Below, one piece after another: positions 173-11,168 of a stretch of 27,716 bases of DNA; position 1 is the first letter of the stretch, and the number at the start of each line of letters is the position of its first letter. Under the pieces are notes generated by a model. That model ran no database searches, was not told the DNA's origin, and saw nothing but the letters and a program-made list of their open reading frames with translations. Source of the DNA: a virus (Duplodnaviria > Heunggongvirae > Uroviricota > Caudoviricetes); IMG/VR virus record IMGVR_UViG_2534681772_000017; one strand, written 5' to 3'. A program made the position numbers and the translations under genes.

Positions 173-1222
173 TTATGCAAGCTCTGCCGCCACATTGTCG
201 CCAACATATAGCGACAACGGATTAAGGGTAACAGCTTGCTCAAGATGGTCAGGCGCAAAGTGTGCATACTTCATTGTTTCTCGAATGTTGGCATGTCCGA
301 GTATTTTCTGCAGCACCAGTATATTTCCGCCGTTCATCATAAAATGCGCACCAAAGGTATGACGCAAAACATGAGTCTTCTGCCCTTCCGTCAGCTCAAT
401 GTTCGTAAGCTTGAGCATCTTCTTAAAGTCTTGATAGCAGGGTTTGAACATTCTCCCCTGACGTTCAGACAACTCGTCGTAGAGCCATTTAGGAATCGGA
501 ACCGTGCGATTCTTCTTACCTTTGGTTTTGGTGAAAGTCAGCTTGCATGGGGAAAGTTGGGGACGTGTAAGTCTCTCGGCTTCTCCCCATCGTGCGCCGG
601 TAGCCAAGCAAACCTTAACAATCATCGTAAGATTTTCTTTGCCATATTGTTCACAGGCTCGGAACAGCTCCGGGAGCTGAGACAAAGTTAGCCAGGACAT
701 TTCTTTCTCAGCTTCTTTGAATACGCGAATCCCGTCCAGTGGATTGGGTAAACTCCACTCCCCTAATCGTCGCAGTTCATTGAACACCGCTTCGAGGTAT
801 TGCTGCTCGCGATTGACAGTTATAGGTTTGGCGATCCACTTCGCCGGGTCTTTGTGATAGCCGTTGTCTATTTCGCCACGTAATCGACGGTCACGGTAAT
901 GAGCCCAATCTTTAGCGGTAAGACGAGATGCAATAGGGTCGCCCAACCCATTACATACAATTTGAAGCTTAGCTAACCGCGACTTACTGGCGACCAGCGC
1001 CTGTCCATGTAAATTATGCCAAAGCTGGATAATCTCACTTAAGCGTCGGCGGTCTTCTTTCTTACCGAGCCACGGCTTATCCTCACTCTCATTTTTCGTG
1101 AATGCCTCGAATGCCTCGGCCTCGCCTTTGGTGTTAAACTGTCGACGTATACGCCGCCCCTCCCGGCCATTTGGATAAAGCTCACAGAGCCATTTGCCAT
1201 TTTTCTGCTTACTAACAGTCAT
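173..1222 (-). CDS. int: Tyrosine site-specific integrase, P2/186 type
   Basis: 349-aa ORF with the C-terminal catalytic region of tyrosine recombinases (HVLRHTFGAH ... LGHANIRETMKYAH). Sits at the prophage edge, as in P2/186. SD GGGGTGA upstream of the ATG. Confidence 0.93.
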   Translation of the reverse strand: MTVSKQKNGKWLCELYPNGREGRRIRRQFNTKGEAEAFEAFTKNESEDKPWLGKKEDRRRLSEIIQLWHNLHGQALVASKSRLAKLQIVCNGLGDPIASRLTAKDWAHYRDRRLRGEIDNGYHKDPAKWIAKPITVNREQQYLEAVFNELRRLGEWSLPNPLDGIRVFKEAEKEMSWLTLSQLPELFRACEQYGKENLTMIVKVCLATGARWGEAERLTRPQLSPCKLTFTKTKGKKNRTVPIPKWLYDELSERQGRMFKPCYQDFKKMLKLTNIELTEGQKTHVLRHTFGAHFMMNGGNILVLQKILGHANIRETMKYAHFAPDHLEQAVTLNPLSLYVGDNVAAELA

Positions 1223-1669: not shown

Positions 1670-2512
1670 TTAGATATGTTTTTCCAGAGTAAATACAACA
1701 GCACCAGATGGTGTGATTTCTGATAGGTTGCATTCAAAATCAACAGACTTATTTGATAGCCTGACTTTATTACCCGGCAGTCGCACAACGTCGAAAACGT
1801 CGAACGCGCCATCTATCCCGATGAGCCAACGGCCATTGCCGATTTTGCATGCTGAATTATCGACAAGCCAAGATGAGCTAACGCCATCTACAAAAACCAA
1901 ATCATCAGAGTTAGCAGGAATCATTGATGGGTCAGGTTGCCAACGCCCAGCGTCTTTTAGCTCACCAGATTCAAGGCGGGATTTTTTTATCGTTAAAATG
2001 TCCGAAAAGCTAGCCTCCTTACTTTCTCGCATTTTCCCCTTTCCGGTCGCTAACCATTCCAGCGATACACCAGTATCAAGCGCGCATGTCACAACCACAT
2101 CACCGGGGAAGAAATCTCGTCTTACCCAGGTGCTGATAGTGCCTGAGGAGATATCCAACAAATCCCCAAGCTCCTTTTGCATTGTAAAACCATAGGCGTC
2201 AAGGATGCGCCTTAAAACAGGTTTTCCACCACTCGCCAAAATCTCGTCATAAAGTGCTTTTCCTTTCAACGGTGACGAATCTTGCAAATTCAAATTGGAA
2301 ATTTGACCAGTCAGCAGCCAGTTTAAATCAGCACCAGTATCTAATGAGCACTGAATGATGGCTTTGCCTGGAAAACTGTTTCGCTGAACCCAAGTGCTGA
2401 CGCTGTTTGACGGGACGCCAAGCACTTCCGCCAAAGCCTTTTGCGTGCTGACACCATACGCCGAACTTATCCGCTCAATCACATCTTGCGTATTCAAATC
2501 TTCATCATTCAT
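1670..2512 (-). CDS. cI: 186-type CI immunity repressor with tandemly duplicated N-terminal HTH domain
   Basis: 280 aa. Two consecutive copies of a Phage_CI_repr-like motif (ISSAYGVSTQKALAEVLGV...STWVQRNSFPG...CSLDTGADLNWLLTG and ILDAYGFTMQKELGDLLDI...STWVRRDFFPG...CALDTGVSLEWLATG), then a roughly 115-aa C-terminal domain. Divergent from the lytic operon, the usual immunity-region layout. Confidence 0.82.
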   Translation of the reverse strand: MNDEDLNTQDVIERISSAYGVSTQKALAEVLGVPSNSVSTWVQRNSFPGKAIIQCSLDTGADLNWLLTGQISNLNLQDSSPLKGKALYDEILASGGKPVLRRILDAYGFTMQKELGDLLDISSGTISTWVRRDFFPGDVVVTCALDTGVSLEWLATGKGKMRESKEASFSDILTIKKSRLESGELKDAGRWQPDPSMIPANSDDLVFVDGVSSSWLVDNSACKIGNGRWLIGIDGAFDVFDVVRLPGNKVRLSNKSVDFECNLSEITPSGAVVFTLEKHI

Positions 2513-4838: not shown

Positions 4839-5116
4839 GAAAAACACATCAACTAAAAATTCGGCCTGAGTTTTTTCAGGCTGTCATCAATGGAACAAAA
4901 AAAGCCGAGTTTCGCCGTGCTGACCGTGATTTTGCTGTAGGGGATTTACTTTGCTTAAACGAGTACGGAGCCTGCGTATATGACCCGAAAAAGGTCGGTT
5001 TTACCGGCGCTTTTGTCTACGTGCTGGTGACTCATGTAACTGACCTTAGCGAGTGGGCTCCCGGCTATGTGATGCTAAGCATACAGCGTAGACAAATGGG
5101 GGAACTATGCGGGTAA
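4835..5116 (+). CDS. ASCH/DUF3850-like small protein
   Basis: Start set at MRKTHQLKIRPEFF (ATGA overlap with the previous stop). Motif HQLKI..EFF..V..G.KKAEFRRADRDF.VGD.L fits the DUF3850/ASCH beta-barrel fold, which is predicted to bind RNA. Confidence 0.55.
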   Translation: MRKTHQLKIRPEFFQAVINGTKKAEFRRADRDFAVGDLLCLNEYGACVYDPKKVGFTGAFVYVLVTHVTDLSEWAPGYVMLSIQRRQMGELCG

Positions 5117-7341
5117 GCGTTAACTTTGCTTACCCGTGGAATGCCCCACGGTCGGCAATAGCCAGCCCATACCTTACATATGACCAACAGCATCGCCGCG
5201 ACCGTATGTTCGCGGCTTTGCTGCATGCGAGAAAAGTGCTTTCTCTCCAGCCCGAGTGCGTGCGCTTTGACGTTTATCGCACCGCTGCGGTGCTGGAGCA
5301 AAATCAGGGCAGTCAACGAGCCAATGCCTTTTTAATCAGCTTCTGCAAAAAGGCATTGCCACGTCTTGAACTGGTCGCAAAAAAATACGAGTGCGCGGGT
5401 ATCAACAGCAATGTATCAGCCGCTGTTTTCGATGGTCATTTTGATACCGAGCTTATGCAATATCTGGCGTCACGCATGGTTAATATGGTCGCCAGATATA
5501 ACCGCCTCCCTGACATGTCGCGCGCCGATATTGACCTGCTGGGCGCTGATATTGCTAATTTCATTCGCGCTGAACTGGCAGAGCATGACGACGCTGATTC
5601 TGATTTTGGTGAGCTGGCGACGCTGCATGGTTGGTATATGCGAGCAGGGTTAATTACGCTGCAGTTTGGCATTACTCCTCCGCATTGGGCGGGAACAACC
5701 ACAAAATACTTTGACCCGGATAAAGTTGCCCCGGCTATCGCTCGTATGTTTAACGATGTGTGGTGGCGTGGTCGCCTGCGTCGCATTGCGGCTGCATGGC
5801 GCGAACACCTGCAAATCGCAGTCGGAAATGTCAGCAAAAAACGACACGCATACGCGAGTAAAAACTGCGTGACCGACTGGCGTGAGCAAAAGCGCCGCAC
5901 GCGCGAGTTTCTCAAGGGGCTGGATCTCGAAGACGAAGACGGCAACCGCATCAGCCTGATTGAAAAATACGACGGTTCGGTCGCTAACCCTGCGATACGC
6001 CGCTGCGAGCTGATGACCCGCATCCGTGGGTTTGAAAACATCTGCAATGAGCTCGGTTATGTCGGTGAGTTTTACACCCTGACAGCACCGTCTAAATATC
6101 ACGCCACCACCAAAGCAGGCTACCGTAACAGTAAATGGAACGGAGCCAGCCCGTCGGACACGCAGAGTTATCTAACCGGCCTTTGGGCGCGCATTCGTGC
6201 CAAGTTGCACCGGGAAGAAATCCGCATTTTCGGCATACGTGTTGCCGAGCCTCATCACGACGGGACGCCTCACTGGCATATGCTTATGTTCATGCTGCCG
6301 GAAGACGTCGAGCGTGTGCGCCTCATCATTCGCGATTATGCGTGGGAGGAAGACCATCACGAACTGAGAAGCGATAAAGCCAAAAAGGCACGCTTTCACG
6401 CCGAGGCCATTGACCCGGAAAAAGGCAGCGCTACCGGCTATGTCGCTAAATACATTTCAAAAAATATCGACGGCTATGCTCTCGATGGTGAGACCGATGA
6501 CGAAAGCGGCGAACTACTGAAAGAGACAGCACCCGCCGTTTCAGCATGGGCGGCGCGCTGGCATATCCGTCAGTTTCAGTTTATCGGCGGTGCGCCGGTG
6601 ACGGTCTACCGTGAGTTGCGTCGTCTCGCCGATACCGAGACCGCGCACGGTCTGAGCGTTGAATTTGCCGCTGTCCATGATGCCGCTGACGCCGGTGACT
6701 GGGCTGGTTACGTTAATGCGCAGGGTGGGCCGTTTGTCCGTCGCGATGATTTGCAGGTGCGCACACTGTATGAACCGCGCGCTGATTTTAATCAGTATGG
6801 CGAGGAAACCGTCTGTATCCGTGGTGTTTACGACTCTGTTGTCGGCGCTGGTACCCCTATTTTAACCCGGTTAACGCAGTGGAAAATTGTGCCTAAGCGT
6901 GCCGTTGATTTGGCCGTTGACGTTAAGGGCGCTCCTGCGCCCTCTCGGAGTTCTGTCAATAACTGTACGGGAAGCGAAAGCGATCCACCGATACTGGATT
7001 TAACAAAACCGCTGAGTCGGCGTGAAAGACGAGAGCTGACGAACCGACTAAGGAAGCAAAAGCCAGCAATACGGCGAAAATTCATCCACGGAACGGATGA
7101 GCAAAACGCAGCTATAGCGAAAACTATCGACGAGATACATCTGACAACCGGCATTAATATCAGTCGGGGTGAAGCCCTGCACCTGATGGCCGGTGGTAAA
7201 AGTTGTTTTGATGGCAAATGGCTACGCGGAACGGCCAAAGGAGAAATATTTTCCGCTGCGCCATCGCATGAGGCTAAAGCTCGGAAAATCCTTAATCGTG
7301 TTGCGGCGATGGCTGAAGCATCAAAACCAATACATGATTAA
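5107..7341 (+). CDS. A: Replication initiation endonuclease, P2 gpA type (rolling-circle initiator)
   Basis: 744 aa. N-terminal YPWNAPR (P2 A has YAWNAPRE), HUH motif GTPHWHMLMF and the catalytic tyrosine motif GYVAKYISKNIDGYALDG. SD GGGGGA 4 nt before the ATG. Confidence 0.95.
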   Translation: MRVSVNFAYPWNAPRSAIASPYLTYDQQHRRDRMFAALLHARKVLSLQPECVRFDVYRTAAVLEQNQGSQRANAFLISFCKKALPRLELVAKKYECAGINSNVSAAVFDGHFDTELMQYLASRMVNMVARYNRLPDMSRADIDLLGADIANFIRAELAEHDDADSDFGELATLHGWYMRAGLITLQFGITPPHWAGTTTKYFDPDKVAPAIARMFNDVWWRGRLRRIAAAWREHLQIAVGNVSKKRHAYASKNCVTDWREQKRRTREFLKGLDLEDEDGNRISLIEKYDGSVANPAIRRCELMTRIRGFENICNELGYVGEFYTLTAPSKYHATTKAGYRNSKWNGASPSDTQSYLTGLWARIRAKLHREEIRIFGIRVAEPHHDGTPHWHMLMFMLPEDVERVRLIIRDYAWEEDHHELRSDKAKKARFHAEAIDPEKGSATGYVAKYISKNIDGYALDGETDDESGELLKETAPAVSAWAARWHIRQFQFIGGAPVTVYRELRRLADTETAHGLSVEFAAVHDAADAGDWAGYVNAQGGPFVRRDDLQVRTLYEPRADFNQYGEETVCIRGVYDSVVGAGTPILTRLTQWKIVPKRAVDLAVDVKGAPAPSRSSVNNCTGSESDPPILDLTKPLSRRERRELTNRLRKQKPAIRRKFIHGTDEQNAAIAKTIDEIHLTTGINISRGEALHLMAGGKSCFDGKWLRGTAKGEIFSAAPSHEAKARKILNRVAAMAEASKPIHD

Positions 7342-7401
7342 TTCATATCCATATCATGCACATACGGCAATCGCCCTATTCGTTTTTTTTCTTCCCATCT
7401 T

Positions 7402-7435
7402 TTGCCAATACGTGCTACTGTATAAATATACAGTA
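7402..7435 (+). promoter_or_regulatory. SOS-regulated promoter with LexA box
   Basis: TACTGTATAAATATACAGTA at 7416-7435 is a perfect CTGT-N8-ACAG LexA operator. It overlaps an AT-rich -10 region and lies downstream of a -35-like TTGCCA (7402-7407). Directly upstream of the 7455 ORF. Confidence 0.85.
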
Positions 7436-7454
7436 ACCCTATGGGAGGGATTTC

Positions 7455-7637
7455 ATGGTTGGCGAACATTTCAGCCGAACGCAGCAAAAGTGGGCTTGTG
7501 TGCAATTTATTGCCGAGGTATCTCTGATTGCAAACTGCAAGCCATCAGACTTAAAGCTCGCGCTCACTCTCATTGCAGACCTAGCAAACAGCGAAAATAA
7601 CGAAACCGAAGATGATATTTTTTATAAGGCTGATTAG
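7455..7637 (+). CDS. Small SOS-induced ORF, possible N-terminal part of a Tum-like antirepressor
   Basis: 60-aa ORF with SD GGGAGGGA 5 nt upstream, immediately downstream of the LexA box. Ends at a TAG that is in frame with the DinI-like ORF that follows. Confidence 0.45.
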   Translation: MVGEHFSRTQQKWACVQFIAEVSLIANCKPSDLKLALTLIADLANSENNETEDDIFYKAD

Positions 7638-7640
7638 ATT

Positions 7641-7874
7641 ATGAGAATCAATATCACGTTGGATAAAGAGCAAAAAATTAGTCAGGCAACGTTGGATGCG
7701 CTTGAGGCTGAGCTGTACCGCAATCTGCAACCTATTTACCCAAAGACCGCTATCCGCATTCGCAAGGGCTCCGCAAATGGCGTTGAGCTAAGCGGTTTGA
7801 AACTGGACGAAGATAAAAAACGAGTAATGGAAATCATGCAGCAGGTATGGGAGGACGATAGCTGGTTGCATTAA
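7641..7874 (+). CDS. DinI-family protein (DinI/Tum C-terminal domain-like)
   Basis: 77 aa (MRINITLDKEQKIS...LDALEAELYRNLQPIYP...EIMQQVWEDDSWLH) with the DinI-like pattern of an N-terminal MRIE/N beta strand and an acidic, Trp-containing C-terminal helix. In the same reading frame as the 7455 ORF. Confidence 0.8.
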   Translation: MRINITLDKEQKISQATLDALEAELYRNLQPIYPKTAIRIRKGSANGVELSGLKLDEDKKRVMEIMQQVWEDDSWLH

Positions 7875-7968
7875 CAAATGCCGCCGGTGCTGAAACTCGC
7901 TTTCAGTGCTGGCGGGGTTGAACAACGAGCCCCGCGAGGCGTTAGCCTGCCCCGTAGAGACCGCCCCC

Positions 7969-7997
7969 AACCGGCACGATTAAAGCCGGTTTTTTTA
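7969..7997 (+). terminator. Putative intrinsic terminator after the SOS operon
   Basis: AACCGGC-(9 nt)-GCCGGTT stem followed by a T-run, about 100 bp downstream of the DinI-like stop. Confidence 0.5.
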
Positions 7998-8156
7998 TGC
8001 CATTTTTCCGCGATTTCTCCGCTTTTTAGCCGTGCATGCAACAGGTGCATGGTTTTGCATGCGTCGTGGTTGCCCGTTCTGGCCGTGCGCCGTCAGTGCT
8101 GGCGCGGATCCAGAGTGGTCATGCAACTGCATTAAAACCGACCCATAAAGCGGGCA

Positions 8157-8175
8157 GGCGTGGCGGGGAAAGCAT
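8157..8175. other. cos site (19-nt cohesive-end sequence of P2/186 type)
   Basis: GGCGTGGCGGGGAAAGCAT lies between gene A and the portal gene. From memory it matches the 186 cohesive end and differs at 2 of 19 positions from P2 cos (GGCGAGGCGGGGAAAGCAC). Flanked by TGCATGC-type and GT-rich repeats. Confidence 0.7.
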
Positions 8176-8352: not shown

Positions 8353-9399
8353 TTATTCCGGGTTGTCGAGGGTGTACTCTTTGAACCTGATGACCTCCAT
8401 ACCGAGCCAGTCGTTTACCTCCCTGAACCTGTCCTGCAGGGGTGACAGCTCGTTACGCACAAATACCTTTGCCACCTTCTCAACGTCACCGAGTGAACCT
8501 ATATTCTCGGGCTTGCCGCCCATGAGCTGGAACGGTACGCGGTGCGCGTCCATCAGGTCGGCGGCGCTGGCTTTCTTGATGTTGAAAAAGTCATCCTTTG
8601 TAGCGACCTCGCTCAGTGGCAAGATTTTGATGCCGTCCGGTTTTGCGCCCGGAGCGTAGAAAAACAGGTTCTTAAAGTTGCCTAGCCCTTTCGAGTTGCG
8701 CATCGCCTCGCGTAGCGATTCGACGTCGGTCGCGCTCTGCGCCGGGTCGGTCACATACATGATGTAACCCGCGTGCGCGCCGTTCTGGTAATACTTGCGG
8801 CGGAACAGCGTAGCGGATTCATTCAGCCAGGCAGAATTAAGCGCGCTGAGATATTCGGGCAGGCCGTAAATCTCCTGATTTATATCGGGCTCCAGCAGGT
8901 GAAACACGGTGTCAGGTGCGAACTCATGCGGCAGAGTGAAGTTTTCCACAAACCAGAAAATCGAATCATCGACCCCGCGCCGGGTGTATTTGGCCGGTGA
9001 GGCCAGCAGCTTGATTAACTGGCCGGTGACGCTGTGGCGCTGCTCAAGAAAGGCGTTGCCGAATACCAGATAGTCGAGCGCAAAGCGGCTGAAATCCTGA
9101 CGGGACAGCAACGGGTGCGGAATGTAGGTGCTCGCTAGCACGTTGCGCTTAACGTAAATCGGTGAGCTGTGATGTACAGCAGAGCGCAGGCTCTTTGCCA
9201 GCCCGGAGAAGCTGACCGGCGGCTCGTACCATTTGCCGTTACTGATGCACTCGACGTAATCCAGAATGTCACGCTTATCGAGTACCGGCACCGGCTCGCC
9301 GAAGGTGAAAGCTGTTGTTTTTGGCGGTGCGCTGGCGGTCAGGTGTTGTGGCTTGCTGGCCTTCTGCGCAGCGGCTTTGCGGGATTTTTGCTTACCCAT
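8353..9399 (-). CDS. Q: Capsid portal protein (P2 gpQ)
   Basis: 348 aa, size and sequence character of P2 Q. Leftward orientation next to cos and sharing an overlap with gene P, as in P2/186. Confidence 0.93.
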   Translation of the reverse strand: MGKQKSRKAAAQKASKPQHLTASAPPKTTAFTFGEPVPVLDKRDILDYVECISNGKWYEPPVSFSGLAKSLRSAVHHSSPIYVKRNVLASTYIPHPLLSRQDFSRFALDYLVFGNAFLEQRHSVTGQLIKLLASPAKYTRRGVDDSIFWFVENFTLPHEFAPDTVFHLLEPDINQEIYGLPEYLSALNSAWLNESATLFRRKYYQNGAHAGYIMYVTDPAQSATDVESLREAMRNSKGLGNFKNLFFYAPGAKPDGIKILPLSEVATKDDFFNIKKASAADLMDAHRVPFQLMGGKPENIGSLGDVEKVAKVFVRNELSPLQDRFREVNDWLGMEVIRFKEYTLDNPE

Positions 9400-11168
9400 T
9401 AGTTGAACTCCAGAATAGATTTAGGCTGCATTCCGCTACCGGCGGAAAGCGGTTCGTTTAACAGGGCGTGCATGGTCGCCCATGCGATATCGGCGTGACT
9501 GGCTTCCTCGGTGCGGCTGGCCTCGTAGGTGGCGCTGCGCCCGCTGCTGGTCATGGTTTTGCGGATGGACATAAACGACTGCGTGACGTCTGTCGCCCCG
9601 GCGTCGTATTCCAGACAGCCACGGCGAATGGTGTCTTTTGCCTTGAGCACCATCGCGGTTTTCATTTCAGGTGTGTAACGGATGCCGCGTGCCGCCGGGT
9701 AGAATGAGCGCACCAACTGATAAACGCCGAGGCCGAGGCCGGTCGCGTCAATGCCGATGTATTCAACGTTATATTTCTCGGTCAGCTTGCGGATCCCCTC
9801 TGCCTGTGCGGCAAAGTCCATGCCTTTCCACTGATGACGCTCCAGCATGCGGAACTTGCCACCCGAGACCACCGGCGGCGCGAGTACGACGCACCCGGCG
9901 CTGTCGCCGGTGTGTGACGGGTCGTAGCCAATCCAGACAGGACGCGAGCCGAACGGATGGTCGGCGAACGGGGCGAAGTCCTCCCATTCTTCCATCACGT
10001 CGACCATGCAGCGCTGCAGCTCCTCGAACGGGAATACCGACGCTTTATCGTCGACAAATTCGCACATAAACAGGTTTTTAAAGTCCTCATCACTGTTTTC
10101 GCGTTTGAGCTGGTCGAGGTCGAACAGGGTGCAACCACCGGCAAGGGCATCCTCAATGGTGACAATCTGCCGCCACTGGCCATCGTCGCAGAGCTGGCCA
10201 CCGGCGAGCGCGCTGTGACTGATGTCGATTTCGATGCGGTCGGAAATCCGGCTGCGCCCCTTGTTGAACAGCTCGCCAGACCAGAAGGGGTAAGCGCCAT
10301 GCGCCAGCGTGGAAGGTGTCGAAAAGTATGTTGAGCGCAGGTGCTTCTGCGAGGCCATGCCCGACGCGACTTTGCGCAGCTTCTGAAAATTCGGGATCCA
10401 GAATATTTCATCGACATACAGGTCGCCGTTATGGCTCTGCGCGGTGTTGGAATTGGTACCGAGAAAAATCAGCTTTGCGCCGTTGTTGCCGATGACAATC
10501 GGGTCGCCGGTCAGGTCGACGTCGACCAGACGCGCAAACTGGATGATGTACTCGCGGAACACGTAAGCCTGCGTTTTACTGGCCGACAAAAATATCTGGT
10601 TGTGGCCGGTCTTGAGCGCGCGCAGCAGCGCCTCGCGGGAGAAATAGAACGTCGCGCCAATCTGGCGGGATTTGAGAATATCGCGAATACGGTGCGCCAG
10701 CCCTGCGCGGTACCACTGCAACTGGTACTCGAAAGACTGGTCGAAAAATAGTTCCTCCAGTTTCTCGATAGCCTCGTCGCTGAAAAAGTTCTTTTTCGGC
10801 TTTTTACGCTCGCCTTTGTTGCGGTTGGCGACATTGGGGTTTAGGTCGACCTCGTTGCCGGTCTGGCTGTAGCGGTTAACGCGCGCCAGTCGCTCAATCT
10901 GCCGCCCGAGCAGGTCAATTTCTTTGAAATCGCCGCCTGACTTTTGCGGCTTGGCGATGAGCTGAATCAGGCGCGCCTCAAGGCTGCTTTCGACGCGGGA
11001 AATCGGTGCGATACCGTCCCAGCCGTCGCGCTGCTTCCAGCTCTGCACGGTCGGGCGCTTGACCTGCAGCATTTCGGCAATCTGTGGCACGGAAAAGCCC
11101 TGCCAGTAAAGCAGCGATGCCTGCCGTCGCGGGTCATGCAACAAGGTTGTATCGGTGGAGATGGTCAT
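9399..11168 (-). CDS. P: Terminase large (ATPase/nuclease) subunit (P2 gpP)
   Basis: 589 aa (P2 P is about 590). Adjacent to and co-oriented with Q, divergent from the O-N-M operon. Confidence 0.93.
   Translation of the reverse strand: MTISTDTTLLHDPRRQASLLYWQGFSVPQIAEMLQVKRPTVQSWKQRDGWDGIAPISRVESSLEARLIQLIAKPQKSGGDFKEIDLLGRQIERLARVNRYSQTGNEVDLNPNVANRNKGERKKPKKNFFSDEAIEKLEELFFDQSFEYQLQWYRAGLAHRIRDILKSRQIGATFYFSREALLRALKTGHNQIFLSASKTQAYVFREYIIQFARLVDVDLTGDPIVIGNNGAKLIFLGTNSNTAQSHNGDLYVDEIFWIPNFQKLRKVASGMASQKHLRSTYFSTPSTLAHGAYPFWSGELFNKGRSRISDRIEIDISHSALAGGQLCDDGQWRQIVTIEDALAGGCTLFDLDQLKRENSDEDFKNLFMCEFVDDKASVFPFEELQRCMVDVMEEWEDFAPFADHPFGSRPVWIGYDPSHTGDSAGCVVLAPPVVSGGKFRMLERHQWKGMDFAAQAEGIRKLTEKYNVEYIGIDATGLGLGVYQLVRSFYPAARGIRYTPEMKTAMVLKAKDTIRRGCLEYDAGATDVTQSFMSIRKTMTSSGRSATYEASRTEEASHADIAWATMHALLNEPLSAGSGMQPKSILEFN

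Follow-up and report, generated by a model that had tools for sequence, protein, structure and literature searches.

A tumA-tumB module under predicted LexA control as the probable operon for SOS induction in a P2-like prophage of the PSP3/186 type

By which route can a temperate phage respond to the SOS system of its host, if its CI repressor does not carry the domain for RecA-stimulated autocleavage? This question is raised by a short module behind the replication gene of a P2-like prophage. In a sequence-only reading a LexA operator overlapping a promoter, followed by a 60-aa ORF and a DinI-family ORF, was proposed to couple prophage induction to DNA damage by means of an antirepressor. We followed up this proposal in the whole stretch of DNA available for the phage, 27,716 nucleotides of the IMG/VR record IMGVR_UViG_2534681772_000017, which is referred to as the window in the following. 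The module very probably represents the operon by which a P2-like prophage of the PSP3/186 type is induced in the SOS response (Table 1). Thereby it is the already known PSP3-type tumA-tumB operon, a split form of the tum gene of coliphage 186, and neither a new variant nor a new mechanism.

Table 1. Features of the prophage and of its tum module (coordinates refer to the window).
Feature	Position	Strand	Basis
Integrase	173-1222	-	
cI, 186-type immunity repressor, presumed TumA target	1670-2512	-	Pfam domains, PSP3 CI identity
Replication gene A	5107-7341		Pfam Phage_GPA, E=8e-132
-35 TTCCCA of p95-like SOS promoter	7392-7397	+	aligns with annotated 186 p95 -35 TTCACA
-10 TACTGT, identical to left LexA half-site	7416-7421	+	homologous to 186 p95 -10; invariant in 23 aligned loci
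Predicted LexA operator (SOS box) TACTGTATAAATATACAGTA	7416-7435	.	consensus match, uniqueness, alignment with annotated 186 LexA site, conservation
Shine-Dalgarno sequence GGGAGGG of tumA	7443-7449	+	5 nt ahead of ATG at 7455
tumA, 60-aa predicted antirepressor, homologous to 186 Tum N-terminal half	7455-7637	+	PSP3 identity, phrog_1993
tumB, 77-aa DinI-family protein, homologous to 186 Tum C-terminal half	7641-7874	+	Pfam DinI, PSP3 identity
13-bp RNA hairpin without U tract, right after tumB	7883-7913	+	RNA fold
Intrinsic-terminator-like hairpin AACCGGC...GCCGGTT, then T7	7969-7996	+	RNA fold and direct reading
cos cohesive-end site GGCGTGGCGGGGAAAGCAT	8157-8175	+	2 mismatches to P2 cos 19-mer; 0.01 chance matches expected
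Portal	8353-9399	-	
Terminase, structural genes next	9399-11168	-	

The window is a P2/186-like prophage of the Peduoviridae, Eganvirus-like in its organisation. Behind cI an apl/cox-like gene, cII and early genes are found, followed by gene A, and the tum module is placed between gene A and cos. The SOS operon of coliphage 186 occupies the equivalent genome position. Since GGCGTGGCGGGGAAAGCAT is internal to the window, the latter constitutes an integrated or circularly permuted prophage; given this internal cos site, the tum operon forms the right genome end. A 186-aa ORF is listed at 1252-1812 on the minus strand and shares sequence with the 3' end of cI. Instead of this ORF a shorter gene is probably the real one, encoding a DUF2511-like periplasmic protein as annotated in phage Midge (339 nt). 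Located between int and cI, it is likely to be a lysogenic-conversion gene.

A DNA search detected the module in the PSP3-like phages PSP3, SEN1, SW9, SI22, Midge, RCIP0057 and vB_EcoM-613R3 (94-97% identity). It is furthermore present in 169 of 5,426 complete E. coli genomes, where it is annotated as "DinI family protein | hypothetical protein". For a broader comparison one genome per species was scanned, resulting in 28 TumA loci from Citrobacter, Enterobacter, Escherichia, Yokenella, Kluyvera, Kosakonia, Buttiauxella, Pantoea, Erwinia, Franconibacter and others, with TumA identities down to about 60%. Every one of these loci exhibits a CTGT-N8-ACAG sequence, placed 35-41 nt ahead of the start codon of tumA, as well as a gene A match upstream of tumA, which is adjacent in most cases. 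The promoter region could be compared in an alignment of 23 loci.

The absence of an obvious RecA-autocleavage site from CI, as claimed in the sequence-only reading, agrees with the domain composition of the protein. CI (280 aa) is built from 186-type domains, namely two Phage_CI_repr HTH domains (PF07022, at about aa 8-75 and 98-161) and one Phage_CI_C domain (PF16452), and no match to Peptidase_S24 was obtained in CI at E<=0.1. As the S24 domain is lacking, RecA-stimulated autocleavage is not expected. The repressor shows 71% identity to CI of PSP3, the gap resulting mostly from the first HTH domain, and 31% identity to CI of 186 in the alignment. Two HTH domains are present in CI of PSP3, Midge and 613R3, too, whereas the shorter CI of 186 (192 aa) has only one. 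Because of the additional N-terminal HTH domain the interaction of TumA with CI may differ in detail from that in 186.

The predicted operator TACTGTATAAATATACAGTA agrees with the idealised LexA consensus TACTGT(AT)4ACAGTA except for one base. It is therefore an imperfect palindrome, the strands of which disagree at two central positions. Its position was confirmed to be that given in the sequence-only reading. Within the 27.7-kb window TACTGTATAAATATACAGTA is the only exact CTGT-N8-ACAG sequence. Five further sites contain one mismatch, which corresponds to chance level (6 found vs 8.1 expected), and in none of the shuffled sequences did the 20-mer recur, even with up to 3 mismatches allowed. 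By analogy to the work on 186 and PSP3, we consider TACTGTATAAATATACAGTA a conserved LexA operator to which LexA would be expected to bind.

We placed the promoter by transferring the annotation of 186, which comprises the p95 -35 sequence TTCACA, an 18-nt spacer, the -10 sequence TACTGT and a LexA site starting from the -10. The stretch of the window that begins at the gene A end and includes the LexA box aligns almost base for base with 186, and TTCCCA and TACTGT are separated by a spacer of 18 nt here, too. In the 23 aligned loci, the flanks of which have diverged, CTTC(A/C)CA is nearly conserved and its distance is fixed. The generic sigma-70 scan indicated no promoter at the module, because the two hexamers are weak and agree with the consensus in no more than 8 of 12 bases. 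The conserved box covers the -10 of the putative p95-like promoter, in line with the proposed LexA-type operator overlapping a promoter. The region delimited in that proposal started at 7402 with TTGCCA; the -35 homologous to that of 186 p95 is instead TTCCCA (Table 1). TTGCCA (7402-7407) was rejected as a -35 sequence: no -10-like hexamer lies at a suitable distance from it, TATAAA being only 13 nt away, and diverged relatives have not kept it. Upstream of the p95-like -35, at 7349-7367, the conserved motif CCATATCATG(C/T)ACATAC follows the gene A stop. It is present in 186, too, and in the majority of the 28 related loci, with diverging surroundings.

The 60-aa ORF and the DinI-family ORF reported behind the box are both present, and a GGGAGG-like purine-rich block in front of the first one is kept across the aligned loci. 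TumA is 100% identical to TumA of PSP3, which makes a PSP3-type mechanism the best explanation for the module of the window. The relation to 186 is more distant, with about 22-33% identity to the N-terminal half of Tum. Pairwise BLASTP of the 60-aa ORF against 186 Tum gave no match. Their homology is based on the common profile phrog_1993 (E=2.7e-32 for TumA, E=1.5e-23 for residues 1-61 of 186 Tum), on synteny and on a MAFFT alignment (33% identity), in which the positions in common include an AL-x-LIA stretch and the cysteine at TumA position 28. No Pfam or NCBIfam family was matched by TumA. At 90% identity the TumA family falls into 208 clusters, with lengths of 59-63 aa for nearly all of the proteins. 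All named sources belong to the Enterobacterales, no member contains a Pfam domain, and the proteins are called "hypothetical protein" or, in UniRef, "TumA". AlphaFold2 predicted a helical hairpin (H4-25 and H30-50) for TumA at moderate confidence (mean pLDDT 72); the core of the protein is almost invariant and its tail is acidic. We expect the 60-aa TumA, and not the product of the DinI-like ORF, to act as antirepressor.

TumB was assigned to the Pfam family DinI (PF06183) with E=7.4e-24 (84.3 bits, gathering cut-off 24.2) and is 99% identical to TumB of PSP3. It matches E. coli DinI (PDB 1GHH/7YWA) over the full length (E=2.6e-9). The score in the NCBIfam host-DinI equivalog NF007893 is below the cut-off (52.3 vs 111 bits), indicating a phage paralogue and not the host DinI itself. 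DinI of E. coli is an SOS protein binding to RecA filaments; the likeness of TumB to it is one of sequence, and a corresponding activity of TumB is predicted. Most likely TumB is an accessory protein, which may tune strength or duration of the SOS signal via RecA filaments. The DinI-like nature of the C-terminal half of 186 Tum, stated in the sequence-only reading, was found as well: the DinI domain covers residues 87-145, and TumB is 47% identical to residues 71-145.

The closest known system is that of PSP3 (GenBank AY135486; Eganvirus PsP3). The module DNA is 94% identical, and gene order, the 3-nt gap between the genes, the LexA box, the site after gene A and a long CI with two HTH domains are shared. 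Unlike in PSP3, where orf37 and orf38 are inserted between tumB and cos, both genes are missing in the window. In the PSP3 record tumA is annotated as "similar to 5' end 186 tum; UV induction of prophage" and tumB as "similar to dinI and 3' end of 186 tum". It was described that tum of PSP3 and Fels-2 is broken by a stop codon and that the second half of Tum is DinI-like (Lemire et al., PMC3121763). As far as the account in PMC3121763 goes, antirepressor activity of the upstream gene of PSP3 is known from a personal communication of Christie in Bunny et al. 2002.

In coliphage 186 LexA represses p95, and upon SOS induction Tum sequesters CI, leading to derepression of pR (PMC7708051). The earlier description of p95 as a LexA-repressed promoter driving a Tum protein that inactivates CI matches this report. 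Promoter and operator are homologous in both phages, with the LexA box over the -10, and in 186, too, CI is of the 186 type and devoid of S24. In contrast to the window, however, Tum of 186 is one fused protein of 146 aa, whereas here the two halves are split by the TAG stop of tumA (7635-7637) and the 3 nt preceding the tumB start. The gene orf97 of 186 (p95-tum-orf97) has no homologue here. The 186 record furthermore lists a 76-aa internal-start product (VKVNITLDK...) which 'modulates SOS induction' and whose start corresponds to that of TumB (MRINITLDK...). The split form thus yields separately what 186 gets from one gene. A similar logic is realised in Gifsy-1/2/3 with GfoA/GftA, where a small antirepressor and a DinI homologue are encoded by a LexA-repressed operon and induction does without cleavage of the repressor; unlike here, dinI comes first, the phages are lambdoid and the repressor family is unrelated (PMC3121763). 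For the Gifsy dinI homologues no induction phenotype was seen (Lemire et al. 2011, PMC3121763).

Downstream of tumB the RNA of positions 7872-8005 folds with -52.3 kcal/mol (z = -3.5). Two distinct hairpins are located in this region. The one right behind tumB may be a stability or processing element. The other one, about 95 nt downstream of tumB, was missed by the generic terminator scan because of its 9-nt loop; it matches t95a of 186 in position and is likely to be the end of the operon.

Homology to PSP3 and 186, the conserved box and a CI without S24 support the proposal that SOS induction of the prophage would proceed via an antirepressor instead of CI cleavage. In the lysogen, LexA of the host would cover the -10 and the start region by binding to 7416-7435, thereby exclude RNA polymerase from these sites and keep the operon silent. 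Upon DNA damage, RecA would become active and LexA would cleave itself, so that the promoter would be switched on and a short bicistronic transcript reaching from about 7428 to 7996 might be formed. As in 186 and PSP3, TumA would then be expected to bind the 186-type CI and to prevent it from binding its operators. The early lytic promoter would be derepressed in this way without cleavage of CI. TumB, as a DinI paralogue, may act on RecA filaments in an accessory role.

Three other explanations have to be weighed against this assignment. That the LexA-like palindrome is an AT-rich inverted repeat arisen by chance, or the binding site of another protein, appears hardly conceivable, as zero chance matches are expected for TACTGTATAAATATACAGTA, the box occurs in 28 of 28 loci and its half-sites are invariant in the 23 aligned loci despite their diverged flanks. 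Improbable, although more plausible than a chance palindrome, is a model in which TumA and TumB are obligatory subunits rebuilding the full-length Tum, so that both would be needed against CI. In its favour, both halves form a single polypeptide in 186, and the gap of just 3 nt between tumA and tumB suggests coupled translation. However, within 7 kb no DinI-like gene was detected in 19 of the 28 TumA loci, all of them with LexA box. In PSP3, moreover, it is the upstream gene alone for which antirepressor activity is reported, at least according to the second-hand statement in PMC3121763. A DinI-like gene follows tumA in only 9 of the 28 loci, in one case truncated. As the box is kept in all loci, TumA together with the LexA box represents the core of the system, TumB being facultative.

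Alternatively, the module might be an SOS-induced moron locus providing the host with an additional DinI-like RecA modulator and playing no role in prophage induction. LexA-controlled DinI homologues are indeed a common prophage cargo and their deletion in Gifsy phages was without induction phenotype (PMC3121763); furthermore, the first ORF is labelled merely as 'hypothetical protein' in RefSeq. But the constant element across the loci is TumA and not DinI, TumA has its counterpart by homology in the N-terminal, functional half of 186 Tum, and the genome position is that of the 186 SOS operon. Moreover, a CI without autocleavage domain calls for another induction route. We regard a mere moron function as very unlikely, even less probable than the model of obligatory subunits, and assign the module to SOS induction of the prophage via TumA.

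In Escherichia sp. ESNIH1 (locus L029, positions 7190-7579) a 129-aa ORF with the motif GFPSPAQDY, instead of a DinI-like gene, comes after tumA. This ORF presumably resembles UmuD-type S24 proteins. The LexA-controlled slot behind tumA seems to hold varied SOS-related cargo.

In related prophages the first HTH domain of CI is highly variable and the second one nearly invariant, even in combination with identical TumA. Averaged over pairs of TumA-bearing loci, the identity of CI amounts to 0.74 in the second HTH domain, compared with 0.50 in the first one and 0.43 in the C-terminal domain. The same TumA as in the window occurs in PSP3 and in a Citrobacter prophage with a first HTH domain that is only 53% identical. 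From this it seems that TumA is directed at a conserved part of CI and could cross immunity types. The sequence comparison hints that immunity specificity and antirepressor recognition may lie in separate domains of CI. Co-variation of TumA and CI was stronger for the second HTH domain (Spearman rho 0.61) and the C-terminal domain (0.60) than for the first HTH domain (0.29), values which are confounded by phylogeny and leave second HTH and C-terminal domain inseparable. It is a tentative idea, and one that we consider rather doubtful, that TumA might be a broad-spectrum antirepressor with the second HTH or the C-terminal domain of CI as target. As such it might cross-induce heteroimmune relatives, and the DinI half might be a dispensable add-on which was repeatedly gained, lost or, as in 186, fused.

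Knowledge of a prophage that is predicted to be SOS-inducible by an antirepressor may help to predict induction by DNA-damaging antibiotics in lysogens of Enterobacterales. As RefSeq calls the antirepressor a 'hypothetical protein', the assignment is a small gain for annotation, too. Mildly new are three comparative aspects: the LexA box was found in every locus examined, the DinI-like gene is facultative, and an invariant TumA is opposed to a variable first HTH domain in the tandem-HTH CI.

A different arrangement was observed in the loci L020-L025 from Kosakonia, Enterobacter sp. Bisph1 and Enterobacteriaceae bacterium 89. Here CI is located much nearer to gene A, the gene A match is shorter, and within the 14-kb locus there is no match to cII or portal. 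This suggests a differently organised, degraded or satellite-like element, in which LexA box and tumA are retained.
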